Assembly: GCA_019058445.1 (NCBI GenBank)
Contig: JAHPZA010000004.1
Coordinates: 32,001 to 96,000 of the forward strand
Source: Promethearchaeota archaeon
GTDB taxonomy: Archaea > Asgardarchaeota > Lokiarchaeia > Sigyniarchaeales > SOKP01
Direction: 5' to 3'
Length of the DNA: 64,000 nucleotides
The notes beneath the pieces are model-generated. The model was not told where the DNA came from. It made no database searches and saw nothing but the letters and a program-made list of their open reading frames with translations. Shown one piece after another: positions 25,789-33,956 of the stretch. A program made the position numbers and the translations under genes. Each line of letters begins with the position of its first letter. Positions within the stretch are counted from its first letter, which is position 1.

Positions 25789-26181
25789 ATGCCTTTAGTT
25801 AGAGTAGAGATTTTAAAAGGAAAAAGCTCAGAATATAAAAGAGCCATACTAAATGGAATTCATGCCGCTTTAAAAGAAGCTTTAAAAATCCCCGATTATG
25901 ATAGAACACAACGATTATATGAGCTCGATAAATCTAACTTCGAAATTCATAGACAAAGATCAGAAAACTATACAATAATCGAAATAACCATGTTTAGAGG
26001 TCGAAGTCTCGAAGCGAAAAGAAAGCTATATTCAGAAATTGTGAAGAATCTAAAATGTGCCCCAGGAATCGATGGAATGGATATTGTAATTGTTGTACAT
26101 GAGCCTAAATTAGAGAATTGGGGTATTCGAGGAGGAAAACTTCCAAATGAGGCGGGATTAGAATTTAAAATCGAAGTCTAA
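25789..26181 (+). CDS. Tautomerase superfamily protein
   Basis: N-terminal catalytic Pro (MPLVRVEI), 'GRSLEAKRKLY' and 'ENWGIRGG'. Confidence 0.88.
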   Translation: MPLVRVEILKGKSSEYKRAILNGIHAALKEALKIPDYDRTQRLYELDKSNFEIHRQRSENYTIIEITMFRGRSLEAKRKLYSEIVKNLKCAPGIDGMDIVIVVHEPKLENWGIRGGKLPNEAGLEFKIEV

Positions 26182-26345
26182 CAATTAATTTTTTTTTTTA
26201 AATTATAGCATTAGTTTTTAATCCAATCTGATTGATAGTAAATAGATCTTATCTATTATCGGAAAGAATGGTCAGAAAACAAAAAGTTTTTAACATATGA
26301 GATTATTTTTTTTTATAATTAACAACTACATTGGGAATAAAAAAA

Positions 26346-26459
26346 ATGAAAACGCTTCGAAAAAGCATTACTTTTGATATAAAAATAAGTTTGAGGCGAA
26401 TTTCTTCCCTAGTCTTGTTGTTAAGTTTATTAGATCTACTTTTATTATTATTACTTTAA
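26346..26459 (+). CDS. Leucine-rich leader peptide (37 aa) of leuA
   Basis: MKTLRKSITFDIKISLRRISSLVLLLSLLDLLLLLLL*. 15 Leu in total, 13 in the last 16 codons. Ends 93 nt before the leuA ATG. Below the ORF-track length cutoff. Confidence 0.8.
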   Translation: MKTLRKSITFDIKISLRRISSLVLLLSLLDLLLLLLL

Positions 26460-26516
26460 GCCTCGTCTCGTTTTATAATATTTGAGGTCTTTGATCTCTT
26501 ATAAACGTGGTGGGGC
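26460..26516 (+). promoter_or_regulatory. Long RNA hairpin in the leuA leader (putative attenuator switch)
   Basis: GCCUCGUC(26460-67) pairs with GGUGGGGC(26509-16). CGUUU(U)AUAA pairs with UUAUAAACG, and GAGGUC-UUU-GAUCUC forms the apical stem. GC-rich island in an AT-rich spacer. Confidence 0.65.
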
Positions 26517-26552
26517 GTTGTAATATAAATAAATCAAATTAGGTAATTTAAA

Positions 26553-28166
26553 ATGACAGAAAAAGAGGACATATATGTCTCGCAGATGATGGATAAAATA
26601 CGAGGGTCATTGATCCTTCCTGAAAGGGCGTATTTTTTTGATACGACCCTTCGTGATGGAGAACAGACACCAGGAATTAGTTTCAATCATGAAGAAAAAT
26701 TATCAATAGCTCAAGCTTTAAATGAACTAGGGATTGATATCATTGAGGCTGGATTTCCCGTTATTTCTGAGGGAGATTTTAAAGCATGCAAAGATATTTC
26801 TAAAATGGGTTTAGATTCCGAAATAATGGGTTTAGCTCGCATAAAGAAAATCGACATTGATAAAGTTATTGAAGCAGATATGGATAGCATACACGTGTTT
26901 ATTGCAACTTCAGATCTTCACATGAAAGAAAAATTGCAGATGACACGAGAAGAAGTATTAAAGGATATAGCAGAACTAACTTCATATGCTAAGGAGCATT
27001 ATTCAACAGTTTTATTTTCAGCAGAGGATGCAACACGGTCTGACTTGGATTTTTTAATTAAAGCTAATAAAACTGCTGTTGAAAGTGGCGCTACTCGGGT
27101 AAATATACCAGATACTGTTGGTACCATAACTCCTAATGCTTTTGGTTATATCATTCGAAAAAATTATGAAGCACTACCTAAAAACATAAGAATTGCCGCT
27201 CACTGCCATAACGATTTTGGATTGGCAGTTGCAAATACTATTGCTGCGTTTGAGAATGGGGCGTCTGAGGCACAAACTACAATAATAGGATTAGGAGAAC
27301 GAGCGGGAAACGCGGCTTTCGAGGAAACAGCCATGTCTCTTTATGCTTTATATCGAATACCTATGAATATCAATACCAGAAAAATTTTTCCTACAGCAAA
27401 ATTAATAGAAAGCTATTGTGGTGGAAAGATTAAAATAGGAAGATTGCAGCCATTAATCGGCCAAAATGCGTTTGCCCATGAATCTGGCATTCATGCTCAT
27501 GGAATGATAAAACATGCGCGTGTGTATGAACCAATTACACCAGAATTGATAGGAATTCGACGCTCTGATGATGTTGAGCAAATAGTTAAAAAATCGATTA
27601 AATTAGGAAAGCATACAGGAGGGCATGCCCTTAAAGCAAAATTAGAGGATTTAGGAATTCATCCTACAGATATACAATTTAGAAAAATCTTCGATCATAT
27701 CAAAAGATTTGGAGATAAAGGGCATGAAGTAATGGAAGAAGATTTTTTAGCAATTGTAAAAGATGTTATGGGTGAACTACCCGAAGAAGAGCAATATGTA
27801 AAAATTGAGGAACTGACGGTTTTAACCGGCTCCGTTACTCCTACCAGTACCGTTAGGTTAAAGATTCGTAATAATGGAGATTATATAGAAAGAACTGAAT
27901 CTTCTATAGGCGTAGGTCCTGTTGATGCATCATGTAGAGCAATAGTTAAATGCTTTGAGCCTATGAGTAAAGTTAAGCTTTTGGAATATAATATTGATGC
28001 TGTGACTGGAGGAACTGAAGCTTTAGGACATGTTTCCATTGAGTTAATGGATTTAGAAACTAATAATATTGTAAGGGCATCTGCTGCTCATGAGGATATA
28101 GTAATGAGCTCCGTACTTGCGCTTATAAAAGGACTCAATCGTATCGTGAAAGATAAAAATCCATAA
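26553..28166 (+). CDS. leuA: 2-isopropylmalate synthase (DRE-TIM family with C-terminal regulatory domain)
   Basis: DTTLRDGEQ, HCHND, GLGERAGN, FAHESGIH, GVGPVDA. Citramalate synthase cannot be excluded from motifs alone, but the Leu leader favours LeuA. Confidence 0.82.
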   Translation: MTEKEDIYVSQMMDKIRGSLILPERAYFFDTTLRDGEQTPGISFNHEEKLSIAQALNELGIDIIEAGFPVISEGDFKACKDISKMGLDSEIMGLARIKKIDIDKVIEADMDSIHVFIATSDLHMKEKLQMTREEVLKDIAELTSYAKEHYSTVLFSAEDATRSDLDFLIKANKTAVESGATRVNIPDTVGTITPNAFGYIIRKNYEALPKNIRIAAHCHNDFGLAVANTIAAFENGASEAQTTIIGLGERAGNAAFEETAMSLYALYRIPMNINTRKIFPTAKLIESYCGGKIKIGRLQPLIGQNAFAHESGIHAHGMIKHARVYEPITPELIGIRRSDDVEQIVKKSIKLGKHTGGHALKAKLEDLGIHPTDIQFRKIFDHIKRFGDKGHEVMEEDFLAIVKDVMGELPEEEQYVKIEELTVLTGSVTPTSTVRLKIRNNGDYIERTESSIGVGPVDASCRAIVKCFEPMSKVKLLEYNIDAVTGGTEALGHVSIELMDLETNNIVRASAAHEDIVMSSVLALIKGLNRIVKDKNP

Positions 28167-29561: not shown

Positions 29562-32500
29562 TTGACAATCATTGAAGGAAAAACAGCATACCCTTATATC
29601 ACCGAATTTAAAAAGGAGCCATTTAAATCATTCGCTTTTATTAAAAGAAGGGACATAGGCAATTTCTTTTTGAGTTCTTATGATAAAGCCATTCATTTTT
29701 ATCGCCATTTTAATGATAATCTATTAAAACATCCAGATTTGAACCTTGAAAATATTTATTGGTTTCTTTTGTTAAGAAAGTATTTAAAGGAAGATAAAGA
29801 GACAAAAAGCAATGAAATTTATGATTTTATAAAGAAATGCATCGTCCATGTTGATAATAAGCTTGGATTTAGATTTTCTCCGAATTCGAAAAATTACCCC
29901 GATATTTGGTCTACTTATTTTGCCTTAGCGAGTCTAAAACTATTAGGGATATTAAACGAATTCTTATCAGCTGAAGGAACAGACCAAAATATAAGAGAGA
30001 TAATGAATTTTATTTTGTCTCATAAAAAAGGGAATTTATTTGTCCATTGTCTAAATGCAGATTGTAAAATCGATAAGAAAACTTCTTCAACAAGAACTTT
30101 ATATTTTGTGTTAGAATCTTTAATATTATTAGGGATGAATATAAGTGCGAGTAGGGATAAATTTACATCCTATTTAGGCAGTTTAAAAAAAGATCCCTCC
30201 GTAGTCTACAGGTTATTATGCCTTAAGTTTTTAGATTTAGAACATGATGTTGATGAAAAAATACTTCAATACCTCTATCAATTCCAAAAGGAAAATGGAG
30301 GTTTTAGCTTTAAAAAAATTAACGGAGATTTAAATACTTCATTTTGGCTGGTATATGCATTAGATAATTATTATTGGCTGTTAGATTATAATCCCGTAGG
30401 AATTTACTCCTTTCTAAATTCTACCTTAAATGATATTTTAAGCTCGGAATCGAATAGAACTATTATTAAATTAATGGAGCTTTCAAAATCTATTATCCTC
30501 CTTTCAATAATTTGGAAGAAATTCATAGATGAGATAGAAAGAGTTATATTTAAGCAATTAGAACAAGAAGAGCATTATGTGGATTTATATTTAATCACTT
30601 CTAAATTTGGGTTAATTCATGGAATTGATGAGGTAATCTCATATATTAATTTAAACTATACTTTTAAACTAAGAATCTTAGATAATAAAATAGAATTTAA
30701 TAATTTTATGCGGAACTTAAGTAACAGTCAAAATACTATAGTTTCTGAAATTTATAACCAATTGAGGCAAAAAAATATTGTATCCCTTAGTGAAATTCAT
30801 AAAAAATATAAAAGATCTTTCAAATTAAAGGAAGACATTTTTCCCTTAGTTAAAGAATTAATGAATAGAAATTTCTTTAAGGGGAAGATTGTCAAGAAGA
30901 GGTTTAATAAGTTTTATCTATATTTAGATTTTTTCATTGAAAAAGTAATAGTTTCCGATACTGAAATTAACTTAAGCCAAATATTAAATGAAAAGGAGAC
31001 TCTGAAGGATATTAAAAATGATATTTACAATATGACTTTAAAACTTAGAAACACATCTAGACGTATAAAAGTAGAAATTGAATCTTACCTAATAATTGAT
31101 GAGATAGATTATGCTAAAGAAAGACTGAAATTTATTCTACGAAATGCCTTAATGGACGCTGATTTTCTTAATGAAAATATTGAAAATTCCTTTAATTTAG
31201 ATTTATATTATATCAATATTCATAGTGTTTTAAAAAATGAAATTTCTAACTGGTATAAAATTTATTCAGTTTTAAGCAAGCGTCTAAGTGAAATTGATTC
31301 ATATCTTAAAGAAAAAATTGCCGAAAAAGAAGAACTTCGAAACTTAAATAAAACATTAGATCAATTAGATGAAAAGATTTTTAATTTTAGCCAATCTATT
31401 AGTAGAAAAATCGACGAATTCCGAATTAACTTAAGAGAATTTAATGAAGTTGAATATATCGATTCTGGTTATTCTGAATTAATTAAAAATTTTGAGGAAA
31501 TAAGAACAAATACTCAAGAATTCGATAAGAAAATCTATGAAATCTCTCAAAAAATAGTATCAAAAGACGAATTTATCACTGAAAAAAGAAAAAAGGTGAT
31601 AAACAATTGGCTAGGCATTAATGAAGAGCTAACTGAAATATTTAATTATTATCTGAGCGGTTTTAACTTTTTCAAAGAGAATTTAGATAAGTTAAATATC
31701 ATGAGAAATGATATTAAAGGAAAATTATTAAATATCACTGAACAAACACAACTAAGAGTAAAAGAAAATCGATTTCAAGAAGCATTTGACTTGATAAAAA
31801 AAGAAACCGACGATCTTTTAAATGTAATAAAGGAAAAGATCGATAACTATCAAAAGACTATTAAGGATGAACTCGAGAATAGGCAGAAATTATATCTCCT
31901 TTTTAGAATGTTAAATAAAATGTCGGAAAATCTCGAGGAGGATATAATAGAATCTATCTCAGAACAAGTTCAATTTCTCAAAAACAAAGTCATCAAAGAA
32001 AGAAATAAAGCAAAAATTGAAGATTTTGACTTTTTCGTTTCTAATGCGATCCTAAATTTTAAAAGTGACCTTATTGACTTAAAGAAAAGTTTAGATCTTT
32101 CAAAAGATAAAAAGCTTAAAGACGTTATAAGGGGATTTGATCACCTTAGAAACAGTTTTGATGAAGCGCATAAAAAATATTTAAAAAAATTAAATATATG
32201 TAAAGAGATTATAAGCAATTTTGATAAGTCAAACGTCACCATTGTTCATTGGAATAACTTTTATGATTATTTTACGCAAGAACTAAATATTCAACAAGAT
32301 GAATGTGTTAATAGTATCATTACCGATAGAATTTCCTTCTTGATTAACGAGCATAGAACTAATAATGTTAATATCATGGATTTGAAAAAGGAATTAGACT
32401 TAAAATGTAAAGTTCTGATGAACCGCATTAAAGACTTAATTGAAATTTCTAAAATTAACGGTAAATTATACGAGGATGAGAAATGCTTATTAGTTTATAC

Positions 32501-33956
32501 TGATGATTATTATAAGAATAAGGAATTAAAAAATTACATTGATAGTAAACTTTTAAAACAACATAAATCTATAATAGGGAAAATTTTAGCTCTTTATGAT
32601 AGTTCTATTAGGAATAGAACAATAAGCATAAATATGTTAGAATTACAGAACCGGATTAATGATTTGAATAATATGGATGAGGTAATCCGTTCAGAGTTTA
32701 ATAAAAAAATAAATGAGCTTCAAATTCAAAGTGAAAGTCGCATAGAGTATAAAGAGACTCAAAAATACTTTGAGTCTGTAATAGCAAATAGTAATTTAGC
32801 TGCCGAGACAATTTCTAGCAATTTACAACTATTCAATAATATGCAGAATTTTGTTGATCAAATATACAATGATCTTCGAAATGACTTGTTGACGTATTAC
32901 AAAATAATCATGGATGAGTTTAAAAAACCGCAGGAAAAATCGTATGCAAAAATCAAAGAAAACTTTGATAATAAATGGAAAAAATTGGAAGCTAAATTAA
33001 CGCTCGTTCAAGAGAAAATTGACGAGGAATTGGATACAAAATTCGACCACGTTAAAGATTCAAATAAATTAATACCCGAAATAAGAGAATTTTCAGTAAG
33101 GAAGAAAAATATATTCTTAAAAGATTTACAAAATAAAAATGATAAAATTTATGATGAATTGATTATTTTGAAGGATGAAGTCTTTCGGGAAAATTTAATA
33201 GGCAATATTAATAACCAAAAAATTCAAATGAGTCGCTTGCTTGGAACACTTCAAGCACGAGTGGAAGAAGATATAGAAATTAAAGAATTTAAAAGAGCGA
33301 ATTTTAAAATCCAAAAAAGAGCTAAAGAAATTGAAAGAAAAATTAAGACCGTAAAGAAAAAGGTCAATAACATCGTCAAGGATTATAATAGGCAATCATT
33401 CAATTTTGAGACAAAAAATAAATACATCTTAGACGATTTCAATAAATTCTTGGATGGATTTCATGAAATTTTAAATGAAAAAGTAAAATCACTTGAGCAA
33501 TCGATATTAAAAGAATATTGTCTAATGTTAATAAAAGCAGTTTCAAACCAATATCTTACAATTGGGTTTTTAAATAATGAATTAAAGATGAAACGATCAA
33601 ATATTCAAGACAATCTAATAAATCTAATAAGTTCCGGGGATTTAAAGGGAAAATATGATCCCCGCTTAGGGATCTATTATGAGAATCCAAAGATCTTAGA
33701 AAATCTAAACGAGGATGAATTAGAAGTTATAAAAAGTATGAATTTTAGATTTTATGTAGTATATCGACGATTAAAAAGTTTTTCAAGCTTATATGGTTCA
33801 ATAATAGGATTATTTGCGTCGATACTGGCAATAACATATTGGGTATATATTTTTAGTGGAAACAATCCCGCTGTTGCAGCTATACCTATTTCCATTTTAT
33901 TATTGATAATTGTCTATTTCATGTTTAAACGGGGTAAAGAAGAGACCATTAAATAA
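29562..33956 (+). CDS. Large protein: prenyltransferase-like helical N-terminus, long coiled coils, PCI/winged-helix-like repeats, two C-terminal TMs
   Basis: PDIWSTYFALASL and QKENGGF repeats. Heptad-rich middle. Three 'L...l..li....kGKi/l/y' segments. Hydrophobic hairpin at the C-terminus. Confidence 0.65.
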   Translation: MTIIEGKTAYPYITEFKKEPFKSFAFIKRRDIGNFFLSSYDKAIHFYRHFNDNLLKHPDLNLENIYWFLLLRKYLKEDKETKSNEIYDFIKKCIVHVDNKLGFRFSPNSKNYPDIWSTYFALASLKLLGILNEFLSAEGTDQNIREIMNFILSHKKGNLFVHCLNADCKIDKKTSSTRTLYFVLESLILLGMNISASRDKFTSYLGSLKKDPSVVYRLLCLKFLDLEHDVDEKILQYLYQFQKENGGFSFKKINGDLNTSFWLVYALDNYYWLLDYNPVGIYSFLNSTLNDILSSESNRTIIKLMELSKSIILLSIIWKKFIDEIERVIFKQLEQEEHYVDLYLITSKFGLIHGIDEVISYINLNYTFKLRILDNKIEFNNFMRNLSNSQNTIVSEIYNQLRQKNIVSLSEIHKKYKRSFKLKEDIFPLVKELMNRNFFKGKIVKKRFNKFYLYLDFFIEKVIVSDTEINLSQILNEKETLKDIKNDIYNMTLKLRNTSRRIKVEIESYLIIDEIDYAKERLKFILRNALMDADFLNENIENSFNLDLYYINIHSVLKNEISNWYKIYSVLSKRLSEIDSYLKEKIAEKEELRNLNKTLDQLDEKIFNFSQSISRKIDEFRINLREFNEVEYIDSGYSELIKNFEEIRTNTQEFDKKIYEISQKIVSKDEFITEKRKKVINNWLGINEELTEIFNYYLSGFNFFKENLDKLNIMRNDIKGKLLNITEQTQLRVKENRFQEAFDLIKKETDDLLNVIKEKIDNYQKTIKDELENRQKLYLLFRMLNKMSENLEEDIIESISEQVQFLKNKVIKERNKAKIEDFDFFVSNAILNFKSDLIDLKKSLDLSKDKKLKDVIRGFDHLRNSFDEAHKKYLKKLNICKEIISNFDKSNVTIVHWNNFYDYFTQELNIQQDECVNSIITDRISFLINEHRTNNVNIMDLKKELDLKCKVLMNRIKDLIEISKINGKLYEDEKCLLVYTDDYYKNKELKNYIDSKLLKQHKSIIGKILALYDSSIRNRTISINMLELQNRINDLNNMDEVIRSEFNKKINELQIQSESRIEYKETQKYFESVIANSNLAAETISSNLQLFNNMQNFVDQIYNDLRNDLLTYYKIIMDEFKKPQEKSYAKIKENFDNKWKKLEAKLTLVQEKIDEELDTKFDHVKDSNKLIPEIREFSVRKKNIFLKDLQNKNDKIYDELIILKDEVFRENLIGNINNQKIQMSRLLGTLQARVEEDIEIKEFKRANFKIQKRAKEIERKIKTVKKKVNNIVKDYNRQSFNFETKNKYILDDFNKFLDGFHEILNEKVKSLEQSILKEYCLMLIKAVSNQYLTIGFLNNELKMKRSNIQDNLINLISSGDLKGKYDPRLGIYYENPKILENLNEDELEVIKSMNFRFYVVYRRLKSFSSLYGSIIGLFASILAITYWVYIFSGNNPAVAAIPISILLLIIVYFMFKRGKEETIK

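Follow-up and report, generated by a model that had tools for sequence, protein, structure and literature searches.

The DNA analysed here is a stretch of 64,000 nucleotides (nt), hereafter the window, taken from positions 32,001 to 96,000 of contig JAHPZA010000004.1 in a Promethearchaeota metagenome-assembled genome (MAG; GCA_019058445.1), whose host is an Asgard archaeon, as had been supposed. Upstream of leuA, the gene for 2-isopropylmalate synthase, the window carries a short upstream open reading frame (uORF) that ends in a run of Leu codons and is followed at once by an RNA hairpin. A sequence-only reading had proposed that the Leu codons of this uORF sense the supply of Leu-tRNA on behalf of leuA. 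We found support for this core claim in the conservation of the frame, in synonymous variation within it, in its start signals, in a TATA-like box and in the hairpin abutting its stop codon, and we consider it highly likely that the region is a Leu-tRNA-sensing leader. Our best explanation in full, that a cis-acting leader gauges charged tRNA-Leu through the speed at which the uORF is translated and relays this measure to leuA, seems likely.

The leader ORF extends on the plus strand from the ATG at 26346 to the TAA at 26457-26459 (26346..26459), and its 37 codons translate into the 37-residue peptide that had been predicted. Direct inspection of the sequence also bore out the description of its codons: Leu occupies 13 of the final 16 (26409..26456, plus strand), the putative sensor segment, with the closing seven uninterrupted, and CTA, TTG, TTA and CTT are all used. 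The stop codon lies 93 nt before the leuA ATG (26553) on the same strand. The assignment of the downstream gene (26553..28166, plus strand) is likewise sound, as the 537-residue protein passes the NCBIfam 2-isopropylmalate synthase model NF002085 with 581.8 bits against a cut-off of 517 and contains the C-terminal allosteric LeuA_dimer domain (PF08502). The LeuA enzyme family has three paralogues in this genome, and the window gene alone passes a LeuA model. Because the full-length paralogue on contig C9 is a citramalate synthase (TIGR00977, 672 bits) and the one on contig C10 aligns only to LeuA residues 19-386 and leaves the regulatory part unmatched, we identify the window gene as the real leuA. 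No other gene belongs to its operon, since the next one, encoding an aminotransferase, is convergent; leuA is thus monocistronic.

Within the single genome (4.6 Mb, 31% GC) the position of such a Leu run is unusual. Six-frame translation yielded 11 runs of at least seven Leu; for the 370 nt preceding leuA, the expectation is about 4e-4 such runs. Among the small ORFs upstream of ~3800 long ORFs, the leuA uORF was the top Leu match, with 9 Leu per 10-codon window. Other runs of at least six Leu were considered as additional Leu leaders and rejected, since those examined are in alternative frames of long ORFs, are antisense to them, or have no gene downstream. Taken alone, the evidence for a leader from this one genome is suggestive; it is the comparison across genomes that we regard as decisive.

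When the leuA upstream regions of Asgard relatives were compared, as the sequence-only reading had advised, a Leu-rich uORF was found at the equivalent position in 42 distinct loci, of which 37 were analysed in detail and five are further distinct ones. These loci, all from related MAGs, do not count as independent, although many genera and studies are represented among them. The uORF is present in every examined leuA-containing genus of family f1, with a degenerate copy in genus g10, and in four genera of the sister family f2, and it is retained down to 67% LeuA identity. Its length is 31-41 codons, and the leuA ATG follows its stop at a distance of 82-132 nt, in most loci 87-101 nt. At one locus (L019; G039:C95) an N run and a duplicated leuA start separate the Leu-rich uORF from the gene; this arrangement is probably a scaffolding artefact, and the spacing there is unusable. 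The counts given below for the leuA leader refer to the 37 loci unless another set is named.

The Leu codons are concentrated at the extreme end of the uORF. Counting back from the stop, every one of the 37 loci has Leu at codons -4 and -3, whereas 35 have it at codon -2, 32 at codon -1, 31 at codon -5 and 27 at codon -6, and Leu predominates again at codons -13 to -8. The terminal four to seven codons are thus Leu, with additional Leu among the ten preceding them, and across loci the run is broken by Asp, Asn or Gly. The N-terminus of the leader peptide is conserved as MK-x-L/T-Q. Over 30 codons in each locus the uORF frame contains 0 stops, as compared with 133 and 62 in the other two frames; it is open in 37/37 loci, the others in 0 and 3. 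Conservation in frame, on which the proposal depended, is therefore evident. The stop codon itself varies (TAA 24, TAG 8, TGA 5). So do the Leu codons (TTA 135, CTT 34, CTC 14, TTG 10, CTA 4, CTG 2), with synonymous changes that include TTR to CTN; at their first position, 58 changes from T to C, which keep Leu, stand against 6 from T to A in DNA of ~75% A+T. Since an open frame, varying stops and synonymous Leu changes are together the signature of a translated frame, these comparisons indicate that the uORF is selected as a reading frame, with frame, start, stop and synonymous change all conserved.

Signals for starting both translation and transcription are recognizable upstream of the uORF. 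Its ATG is conserved, generally with a Lys codon next, and is preceded by 9-13 nt in the window by GGGAA (26333..26337, plus strand), which resembles a Shine-Dalgarno (SD) sequence; GGGAA, AGGAA or AGGAT is kept at -14..-8 in most loci. Genes genome-wide show enrichment of SD-like motifs at -15..-10, and SD-led initiation is therefore normal in this host. Further upstream, the TATA-like AAAAAGTTTTTAAC is present at 26281-26294, as claimed, within a distal A/T box (AAAGTTTTTAAC...; 26281..26296, plus strand) that lies at about -59..-50 from the uORF ATG, with a TATA-like motif peak at -59..-57 over the 37 loci. As a candidate TATA box, this element would give a 5' untranslated region of roughly 25-30 nt before the uORF. 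A second A/T-rich block, a T-run with TATAATTAACAA (26306..26325, plus strand), lies at about -37..-26 with a motif peak at -35..-32 and is near-identical in many loci; it may be either an alternative TATA box, in which case the uORF would be nearly leaderless, or an initially transcribed region. Positions 26290-26319 also fit a bacterial sigma-70 promoter at 11/12 positions (TTAACA-18-TATAAT); the host being an archaeon, this match probably reflects merely the TATA-like sequence.

The second conserved component of the leader is an RNA hairpin, P1 (26460..26516, plus strand), which in the window begins at the first base after the uORF stop (-19.1 kcal/mol; z -4.12 relative to dinucleotide shuffles). 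A hairpin of 48-60 nt, located 0-6 nt past the stop, is found in 37/37 loci with energies of -11 to -27 kcal/mol. For the 64-nt segment after the stop, the median minimum free energy is -20.4 and z is below -2 in 36/37 loci, whereas for the segments after 1500 other small upstream ORFs of the genome the median was -5.4, with the first percentile at -15.3; the window hairpin lies beyond the 0.2 percentile of this background. A covariance model built from seven of the hairpins retrieved the others. In its 15 best sense matches, 83% of cells are paired, compared with 44-57% when partners are slid, and both-sided changes occur at 11/19 hairpin pairs, values that 0/500 shuffles reach. RNAalifold, applied to an independent alignment of seven close relatives, returned the same helix and nothing else; applied to a MAFFT alignment of all 37 leaders, which is not a structural alignment, it returned no structure. 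G-U pairs are common in the helix, and the model scores far higher on the sense than on the antisense strand (for example, 60.8 versus 26.5 bits). These two properties identify the element as an RNA hairpin and rule out a DNA palindrome or protein-binding site in its place.

The base of the hairpin is a GC clamp with a constant asymmetry, the 5' arm being pyrimidine-rich (CCUC type) and the 3' arm purine-rich (GAGG type). The CCUC/CCUCC-like 5' arm resembles an anti-SD sequence and the GAGG/GGAGG-like 3' arm an SD sequence throughout the 37 loci; once released, the 3' arm might conceivably serve ribosomes as a standby or decoy site. A TATA box within the 3' arm, serving as leuA's own promoter, was considered and rejected, as it is not conserved as TATA in many loci. 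From the end of the hairpin to the leuA ATG the distance is 34-43 nt in 32/37 loci. This interval, in the window 26517..26552 (plus strand), is an A-rich, U-poor spacer (A fraction 0.5-0.64 versus 0.42-0.46 genome-wide) that holds the leuA SD, TAGGT (26540-26544), which is almost invariant and situated ~9 nt before the leuA ATG.

In our view, no single argument speaks more strongly for a sensing interpretation than the one provided by other pathways. The scan of small upstream ORFs across the genome, again in line with the sequence-only reading, revealed an Ile-rich uORF before the citramalate synthase gene and a Trp-rich uORF before trpB2. Citramalate synthase is the first enzyme of the archaeal isoleucine route. 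Its gene, cimA (G000:C9:414064-415674; TIGR00977, 672 bits), is preceded at 117 nt by a 22-codon ORF with 13 Ile codons, starting MKIMKIIPIG... (G000:C9:413879-413947; L078:796-864, plus strand), which we regard as a candidate isoleucine leader. It is present in 13 f1 and 2 f2 loci, where it ends 103-130 nt before cimA. Downstream of it, a long-range stem (AATTTTAAAC ... GTTTAAAATT) surrounds a loop with many U4 tracts. The uORF before trpB2 (G000:C6:1235140-1236540; TrpB-like tryptophan synthase beta enzyme, NF009057, 638 bits) has 18 codons, six of them Trp arranged as W-x-W-x-W in TGGCNN hexamer repeats, and lies 164 nt upstream of the gene on the minus strand of contig G000:C6 (L080:1666-1722). 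It is a candidate tryptophan leader, and its TGGCNN repeat could also be a protein-binding array. About 14 f1 loci carry it, ending 136-183 nt before trpB2, and shorter W-x-W motifs occur in more distant families. Its final Trp codons and stop pair as a hairpin with the sequence just downstream, and U5-U7 tracts together with a covarying hairpin (loop TTGATTTCCAA) follow further downstream. In both sister leaders, conserved RNA helices abut or incorporate the stop codon, and both, unlike the leuA leader, carry conserved U4-U7 tracts downstream. With three leaders whose codons are each cognate to the product of the downstream enzyme, codon-based sensing is hard to escape as an interpretation.

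Two other candidates were set aside. An Ile-rich minus-strand ORF between a 194-residue gene and cimA (L078:738-791 on G000:C9; MIIPIGIIF...) is not a second element; it is the Ile leader's 5' half in reverse complement, since ATT, ATA and ATC reversed read AAT, TAT and GAT, and conversely. The ATT/AAT symmetry is a source of artefacts whenever AT-rich genomes are scanned for Ile leaders. Before pheA, 26 nt upstream, only the 8-codon MSYTIFFF was seen (L145:1186-1212, G000:C10), and it is not convincing as a Phe leader, being too short and too readily accounted for by the T-run with which it overlaps, the terminator run of the membrane-protein gene upstream. As for the remaining pathways, hisG, anthranilate synthase (Chorismate_bind) and an acetolactate synthase large subunit passing its cut-off were not found in this 92.6%-complete genome, nor was trpE; the genes that it does contain are leuA, cimA, trpB2 and pheA. 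Indole may be the organism's only starting material for Trp synthesis, and His may have to be taken up, which would make it a His auxotroph; genome incompleteness is an alternative explanation.

The arrangement suggests how the signal might be read. Ribosome dwell time on the Leu codons would be the signal. When Leu-tRNA is scarce, ribosomes would linger on these codons, covering the U-rich 3' part of the leader, and would halt short of the GC-rich hairpin base or rest against it. When Leu is plentiful, they would reach the stop, briefly invade the hairpin base and depart. Given the 0-6 nt spacing, the extension of Leu to the last codon and the GC clamp, reaching and melting the base of the hairpin would be reserved for ribosomes that have cleared every Leu codon. 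The two ribosome positions would then favour different folds of the RNA that comprises the Leu run, the hairpin and the A-rich spacer, with different leuA output, and stalling would keep the A-rich ribosome-landing region before leuA open. The sequence-only reading, too, had stalling switch leuA on, a direction that is here a hypothesis. The hairpin may be an analogue of the bacterial 2:3 structure, with access of aCPSF1/FttA, mRNA stability and 30S loading as candidate outputs.

Bacterial-type attenuation, with a terminator hairpin plus U-run and an alternative antiterminator, did not survive examination of the leuA leader. A pattern scan of 26100-26650 found no terminator-like site. Oligo-U after the hairpin is not conserved, the majority of loci having 2-4 U at most; a T4+ tract between the stop and leuA is absent from 10/37 loci and lies just after the hairpin in only ~9, and U tracts in the 5' arm of the hairpin occur in under half. 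Neither the covariance model nor RNAalifold recovered a mutually exclusive second helix, the one conserved helix being the only one found. Termination of the bacterial type is accordingly unlikely for leuA. As there is neither an oligo-U tract nor an alternative hairpin, the output may be placed instead at leuA translation initiation or at the fate of the mRNA. If the region is a Leu-sensing leader, we give an output at the translation or mRNA level an even chance; premature termination or cleavage is possible, with less in its favour, and some other output is improbable.

One form of translational output has a structural model. In the minimum-energy fold of the window, and likewise in several relatives, the Leu run pairs with the spacer and the SD around the hairpin. 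It is also the layout of the actinobacterial LEU element (PMC1262725), which likewise counts in favour of such an output. In the model, the 30 nt before leuA have an accessibility of 0.49, which a ribosome footprint over codons -12..-3 increases to 0.56-0.58 and one over codons -27..-18 does not increase.

Several observations weigh against our explanation and in particular against this translational route. The modelled gain in accessibility is small. The helix between Leu run and spacer lacks covariation, with 61% of cells paired, a value equalled by 318/500 shuffles, and RNAalifold does not recover it. Duplexes that the Leu run (last 16 codons) can form with the ribosome-binding site do not exceed codon-shuffled controls in strength (mean z +0.27), and the actual Leu codons show slightly weaker pairing with the SD than randomly chosen synonymous ones (mean z +0.49). 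The hairpin (26460-26516) excludes the leuA SD (26540-26544), unlike the switches of ermC, cat and secM. The Leu codons of the leaders are the common ones of the genome, not rare ones. (Only 5 tRNAs were detected by aragorn in the MAG.) The search for a leader before leuA came up empty for two f2 genera and for families f3-f7 of the class, including cases in which the upstream DNA is just as AT-rich; reading the regions upstream of leuA orthologues in Hadarchaeota and methanogens did not reveal one either. Finally, two metatranscriptome runs yielded only short leuA-coding pieces from relatives, 85-95% identical, and none on the leader. Shuffles, synonymous-codon controls and pair counts speak against sequestration of the SD by the Leu run. 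A single possible compensatory change was seen, which is not general (TTG/CAA in L004 and L005 versus TTA/TAA in L001 and L006). A multi-register U-to-A zipper, with (UUA)n against the A-rich spacer, would evade covariation tests, so that such pairing may still occur.

The alternative that survives best keeps the same Leu sensor and makes the output premature transcription termination or co-transcriptional cleavage, that is, true attenuation. Here the hairpin would act as a 2:3 antiterminator: a ribosome at the stop would melt its base and expose pyrimidine/U-rich RNA to aCPSF1/FttA with Spt4/5, while a Leu-starved ribosome would leave the hairpin intact and allow RNA polymerase to proceed into leuA. 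The 0-6 nt spacing, the Leu codons up to the final one and the GC clamp fit a ribosome that touches the hairpin only at the uORF end, and the layout matches the stop codon and region 2 of bacterial attenuators. The aCPSF1 of Lokiarchaeota can substitute for the Methanococcus enzyme, which reads U4 tracts (PMC13675443), and the cimA and trpB2 leaders do have conserved U4-U7 tracts downstream of their uORFs. The leuA leader, by contrast, has no conserved U-tract, with none in 10/37 loci and 5'-arm tracts in under half, and no terminator-like site was found in it; the ordinary terminators of the host are long T runs, such as the T11 at 26189-26199; and intrinsic termination at a U-tract would precede the synthesis of the hairpin's 3' arm. 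On this balance we judge a termination or cleavage output for leuA unlikely.

Considerably less probable is an RNA or DNA signal for a protein or metabolite, for example a leucine-responsive regulator acting on the U-rich tract and hairpin, to which the reading frame would be incidental. Such a signal would account for the conservation of CTY-TTA-TTA-TTA-stop and of the hairpin at the nucleotide level too, as well as for the overuse of TTA (68% versus 48% in the genome), and the TGGCNN repeat of the Trp leader could be a protein-binding array. It does not account for the absence of stops from 37/37 open frames against 133 and 62 in the others, for first-position T to C changes that preserve Leu, for stop codons that vary while a start codon with its SD-like element and a length of 31-41 codons are conserved, or for three leaders that each use the codons of the downstream product. 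Moreover, the G-U pairs and strand-specific model scores speak for an RNA hairpin and not a DNA palindrome, and no Rfam family matched.

A functional product of the uORF, namely a small hydrophobic membrane peptide with a tail anchor that has nothing in common with leuA but the transcript, is very improbable. The basic N-terminal half, the 16-residue hydrophobic C-terminus and the conserved N-terminal MK-x-L-Q would suit such a peptide. The hydrophobic stretch is, however, near-pure Leu, in a genome whose small upstream ORFs have Ile and Phe nearly as often as Leu, and it is broken by Asp, Asn or Gly. A membrane peptide would also leave unexplained the linkage to leuA in ~40 genomes with fixed spacing to the hairpin and the leuA start, as well as the parallel Ile and Trp versions before cognate genes, and no Pfam or NCBIfam match was obtained. 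A chance ORF in T-rich intergenic DNA, conceivable in a 31% GC genome with eleven chance runs of at least seven Leu, is refuted by the conservation across relatives and can practically be dismissed.

Upstream of the leader the window contains a tautomerase-family gene (25789-26181, plus strand; PF14552, PF01361). Eight nt past its stop, a T11 run read directly from the sequence (26189..26199, plus strand) is likely its oligo-T terminator and contrasts with the leuA leader, which is without such a tract. Oligo-U is an archaeal termination signal (PMC13675443), and because the T11 run resembles an ordinary archaeal oligo-T terminator, the leader probably starts a new transcription unit. Farther downstream, at 29562-33956, the window holds a 1464-residue ORF whose sole match is a prenyltransferase alpha-alpha toroid domain near its N-terminus.

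The leuA leader can be compared with several known systems. Like it, the enterobacterial leuL (RF00512), trpL, hisL, thrL, ilvL and pheL leaders place a short ORF with codons for the end product on the same strand before the first biosynthetic gene, and in classical attenuators, too, the stop adjoins the 5' strand of a hairpin (region 2). Classical attenuators, however, have an intrinsic terminator and an exclusive second hairpin, neither of which was found here; their regulatory codons are mid-peptide, whereas those of the leuA leader are at the extreme C-terminus; and the host here is an archaeon, whose polymerase needs no hairpin terminators. In Rfam searches the leader did not match RF00512; RF01743 reached 17.7 bits against a gathering threshold of 70, at a different place (26525-26637), and a permissive threshold returned only chance-level matches. 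The element would thus work like a bacterial leader-peptide attenuator and yet appears to stand outside the classical family, because an intrinsic terminator and alternative hairpins were looked for and not found.

The nearest architectural analogue is the actinobacterial LEU element, in which a Leu-codon run has been proposed to pair with the leuA SD as a base stem around an inner structure (PMC1262725, Seliverstov et al. 2005). Its topology is the same as that of the minimum-energy fold of the window, with a simple hairpin in the leuA leader where the actinobacterial element has a pseudoknot. The base stem is not supported in the leuA leader by covariation, shuffles or synonymous-codon controls, and the actinobacterial element comes from an unrelated lineage, so that any likeness is convergent. 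In ermC, cat/cmlA, secM-secA and mifM-yidC2, a ribosome arrested near the end of the uORF remodels the adjacent hairpin and alters downstream initiation, as is proposed here. Stalling in systems of the ermC type is, however, caused by a drug or the nascent chain, and the hairpin contains the SD; here a lack of charged tRNA is the proposed cause, and the SD follows the end of the hairpin at ~24 nt. The tnaC-tnaAB system, where a loading site for Rho is hidden by a leader ribosome that has stalled on its stop codon, offers a model for an output through aCPSF1/FttA, with the differences that tnaC senses free tryptophan via its nascent peptide and not codon supply, and that its factor, Rho, is lacking in archaea. 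In the wider archaeal-eukaryotic lineage, GCN4 and the arginine attenuator peptide provide examples of uORF control of amino-acid biosynthesis; uORFs of this type rely on scanning and reinitiation or on a peptide-specific stall, whereas leuA has its own SD and its uORF is marked by cognate codons.

Leader-peptide attenuation is a textbook bacterial mechanism that needs coupled transcription and translation together with hairpin terminators. That amino-acid leader peptides are not an established mechanism in archaea, as the sequence-only reading had stated, agrees with our survey of the searchable literature, in which no report was found for archaea or for Asgard archaea. The word attenuation is absent from a 2026 cross-domain review of termination, and one tool paper states in general terms, without an example, that uORFs act in archaea. 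With its conserved uORF and hairpin, the leuA leader is a strong candidate for the first described archaeal example of a leader peptide that senses an amino acid. It would extend a known principle of sensing to a new domain of life, with an output that appears to differ from the bacterial terminator type. Extending this to the sister leaders, we think it rather probable that family f1 and part of family f2 use leaders that read tRNA supply (Leu for leuA, Ile for cimA and Trp for trpB2), which would have arisen independently of those in bacteria and would operate without hairpin-plus-U terminators through an archaeal output. For all three, that output could consist of RNA remodelling that depends on ribosome position and affects either translation initiation or access of aCPSF1/FttA.

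If this explanation is true, archaea with a eukaryote-like polymerase also use the speed of the ribosome as a metabolic sensor, and the question of how the signal is transmitted without intrinsic terminators becomes concrete and testable. The leaders would provide natural Leu-, Ile- and Trp-responsive cis-regulatory parts for archaeal genetics. They would also serve as markers, within the genomes of uncultured Asgard archaea, of the amino acids that these organisms make themselves, here through leuA, cimA and trpB2. Ribosome-mediated sensing of amino acids would then belong to the archaeal lineage closest to eukaryotes.

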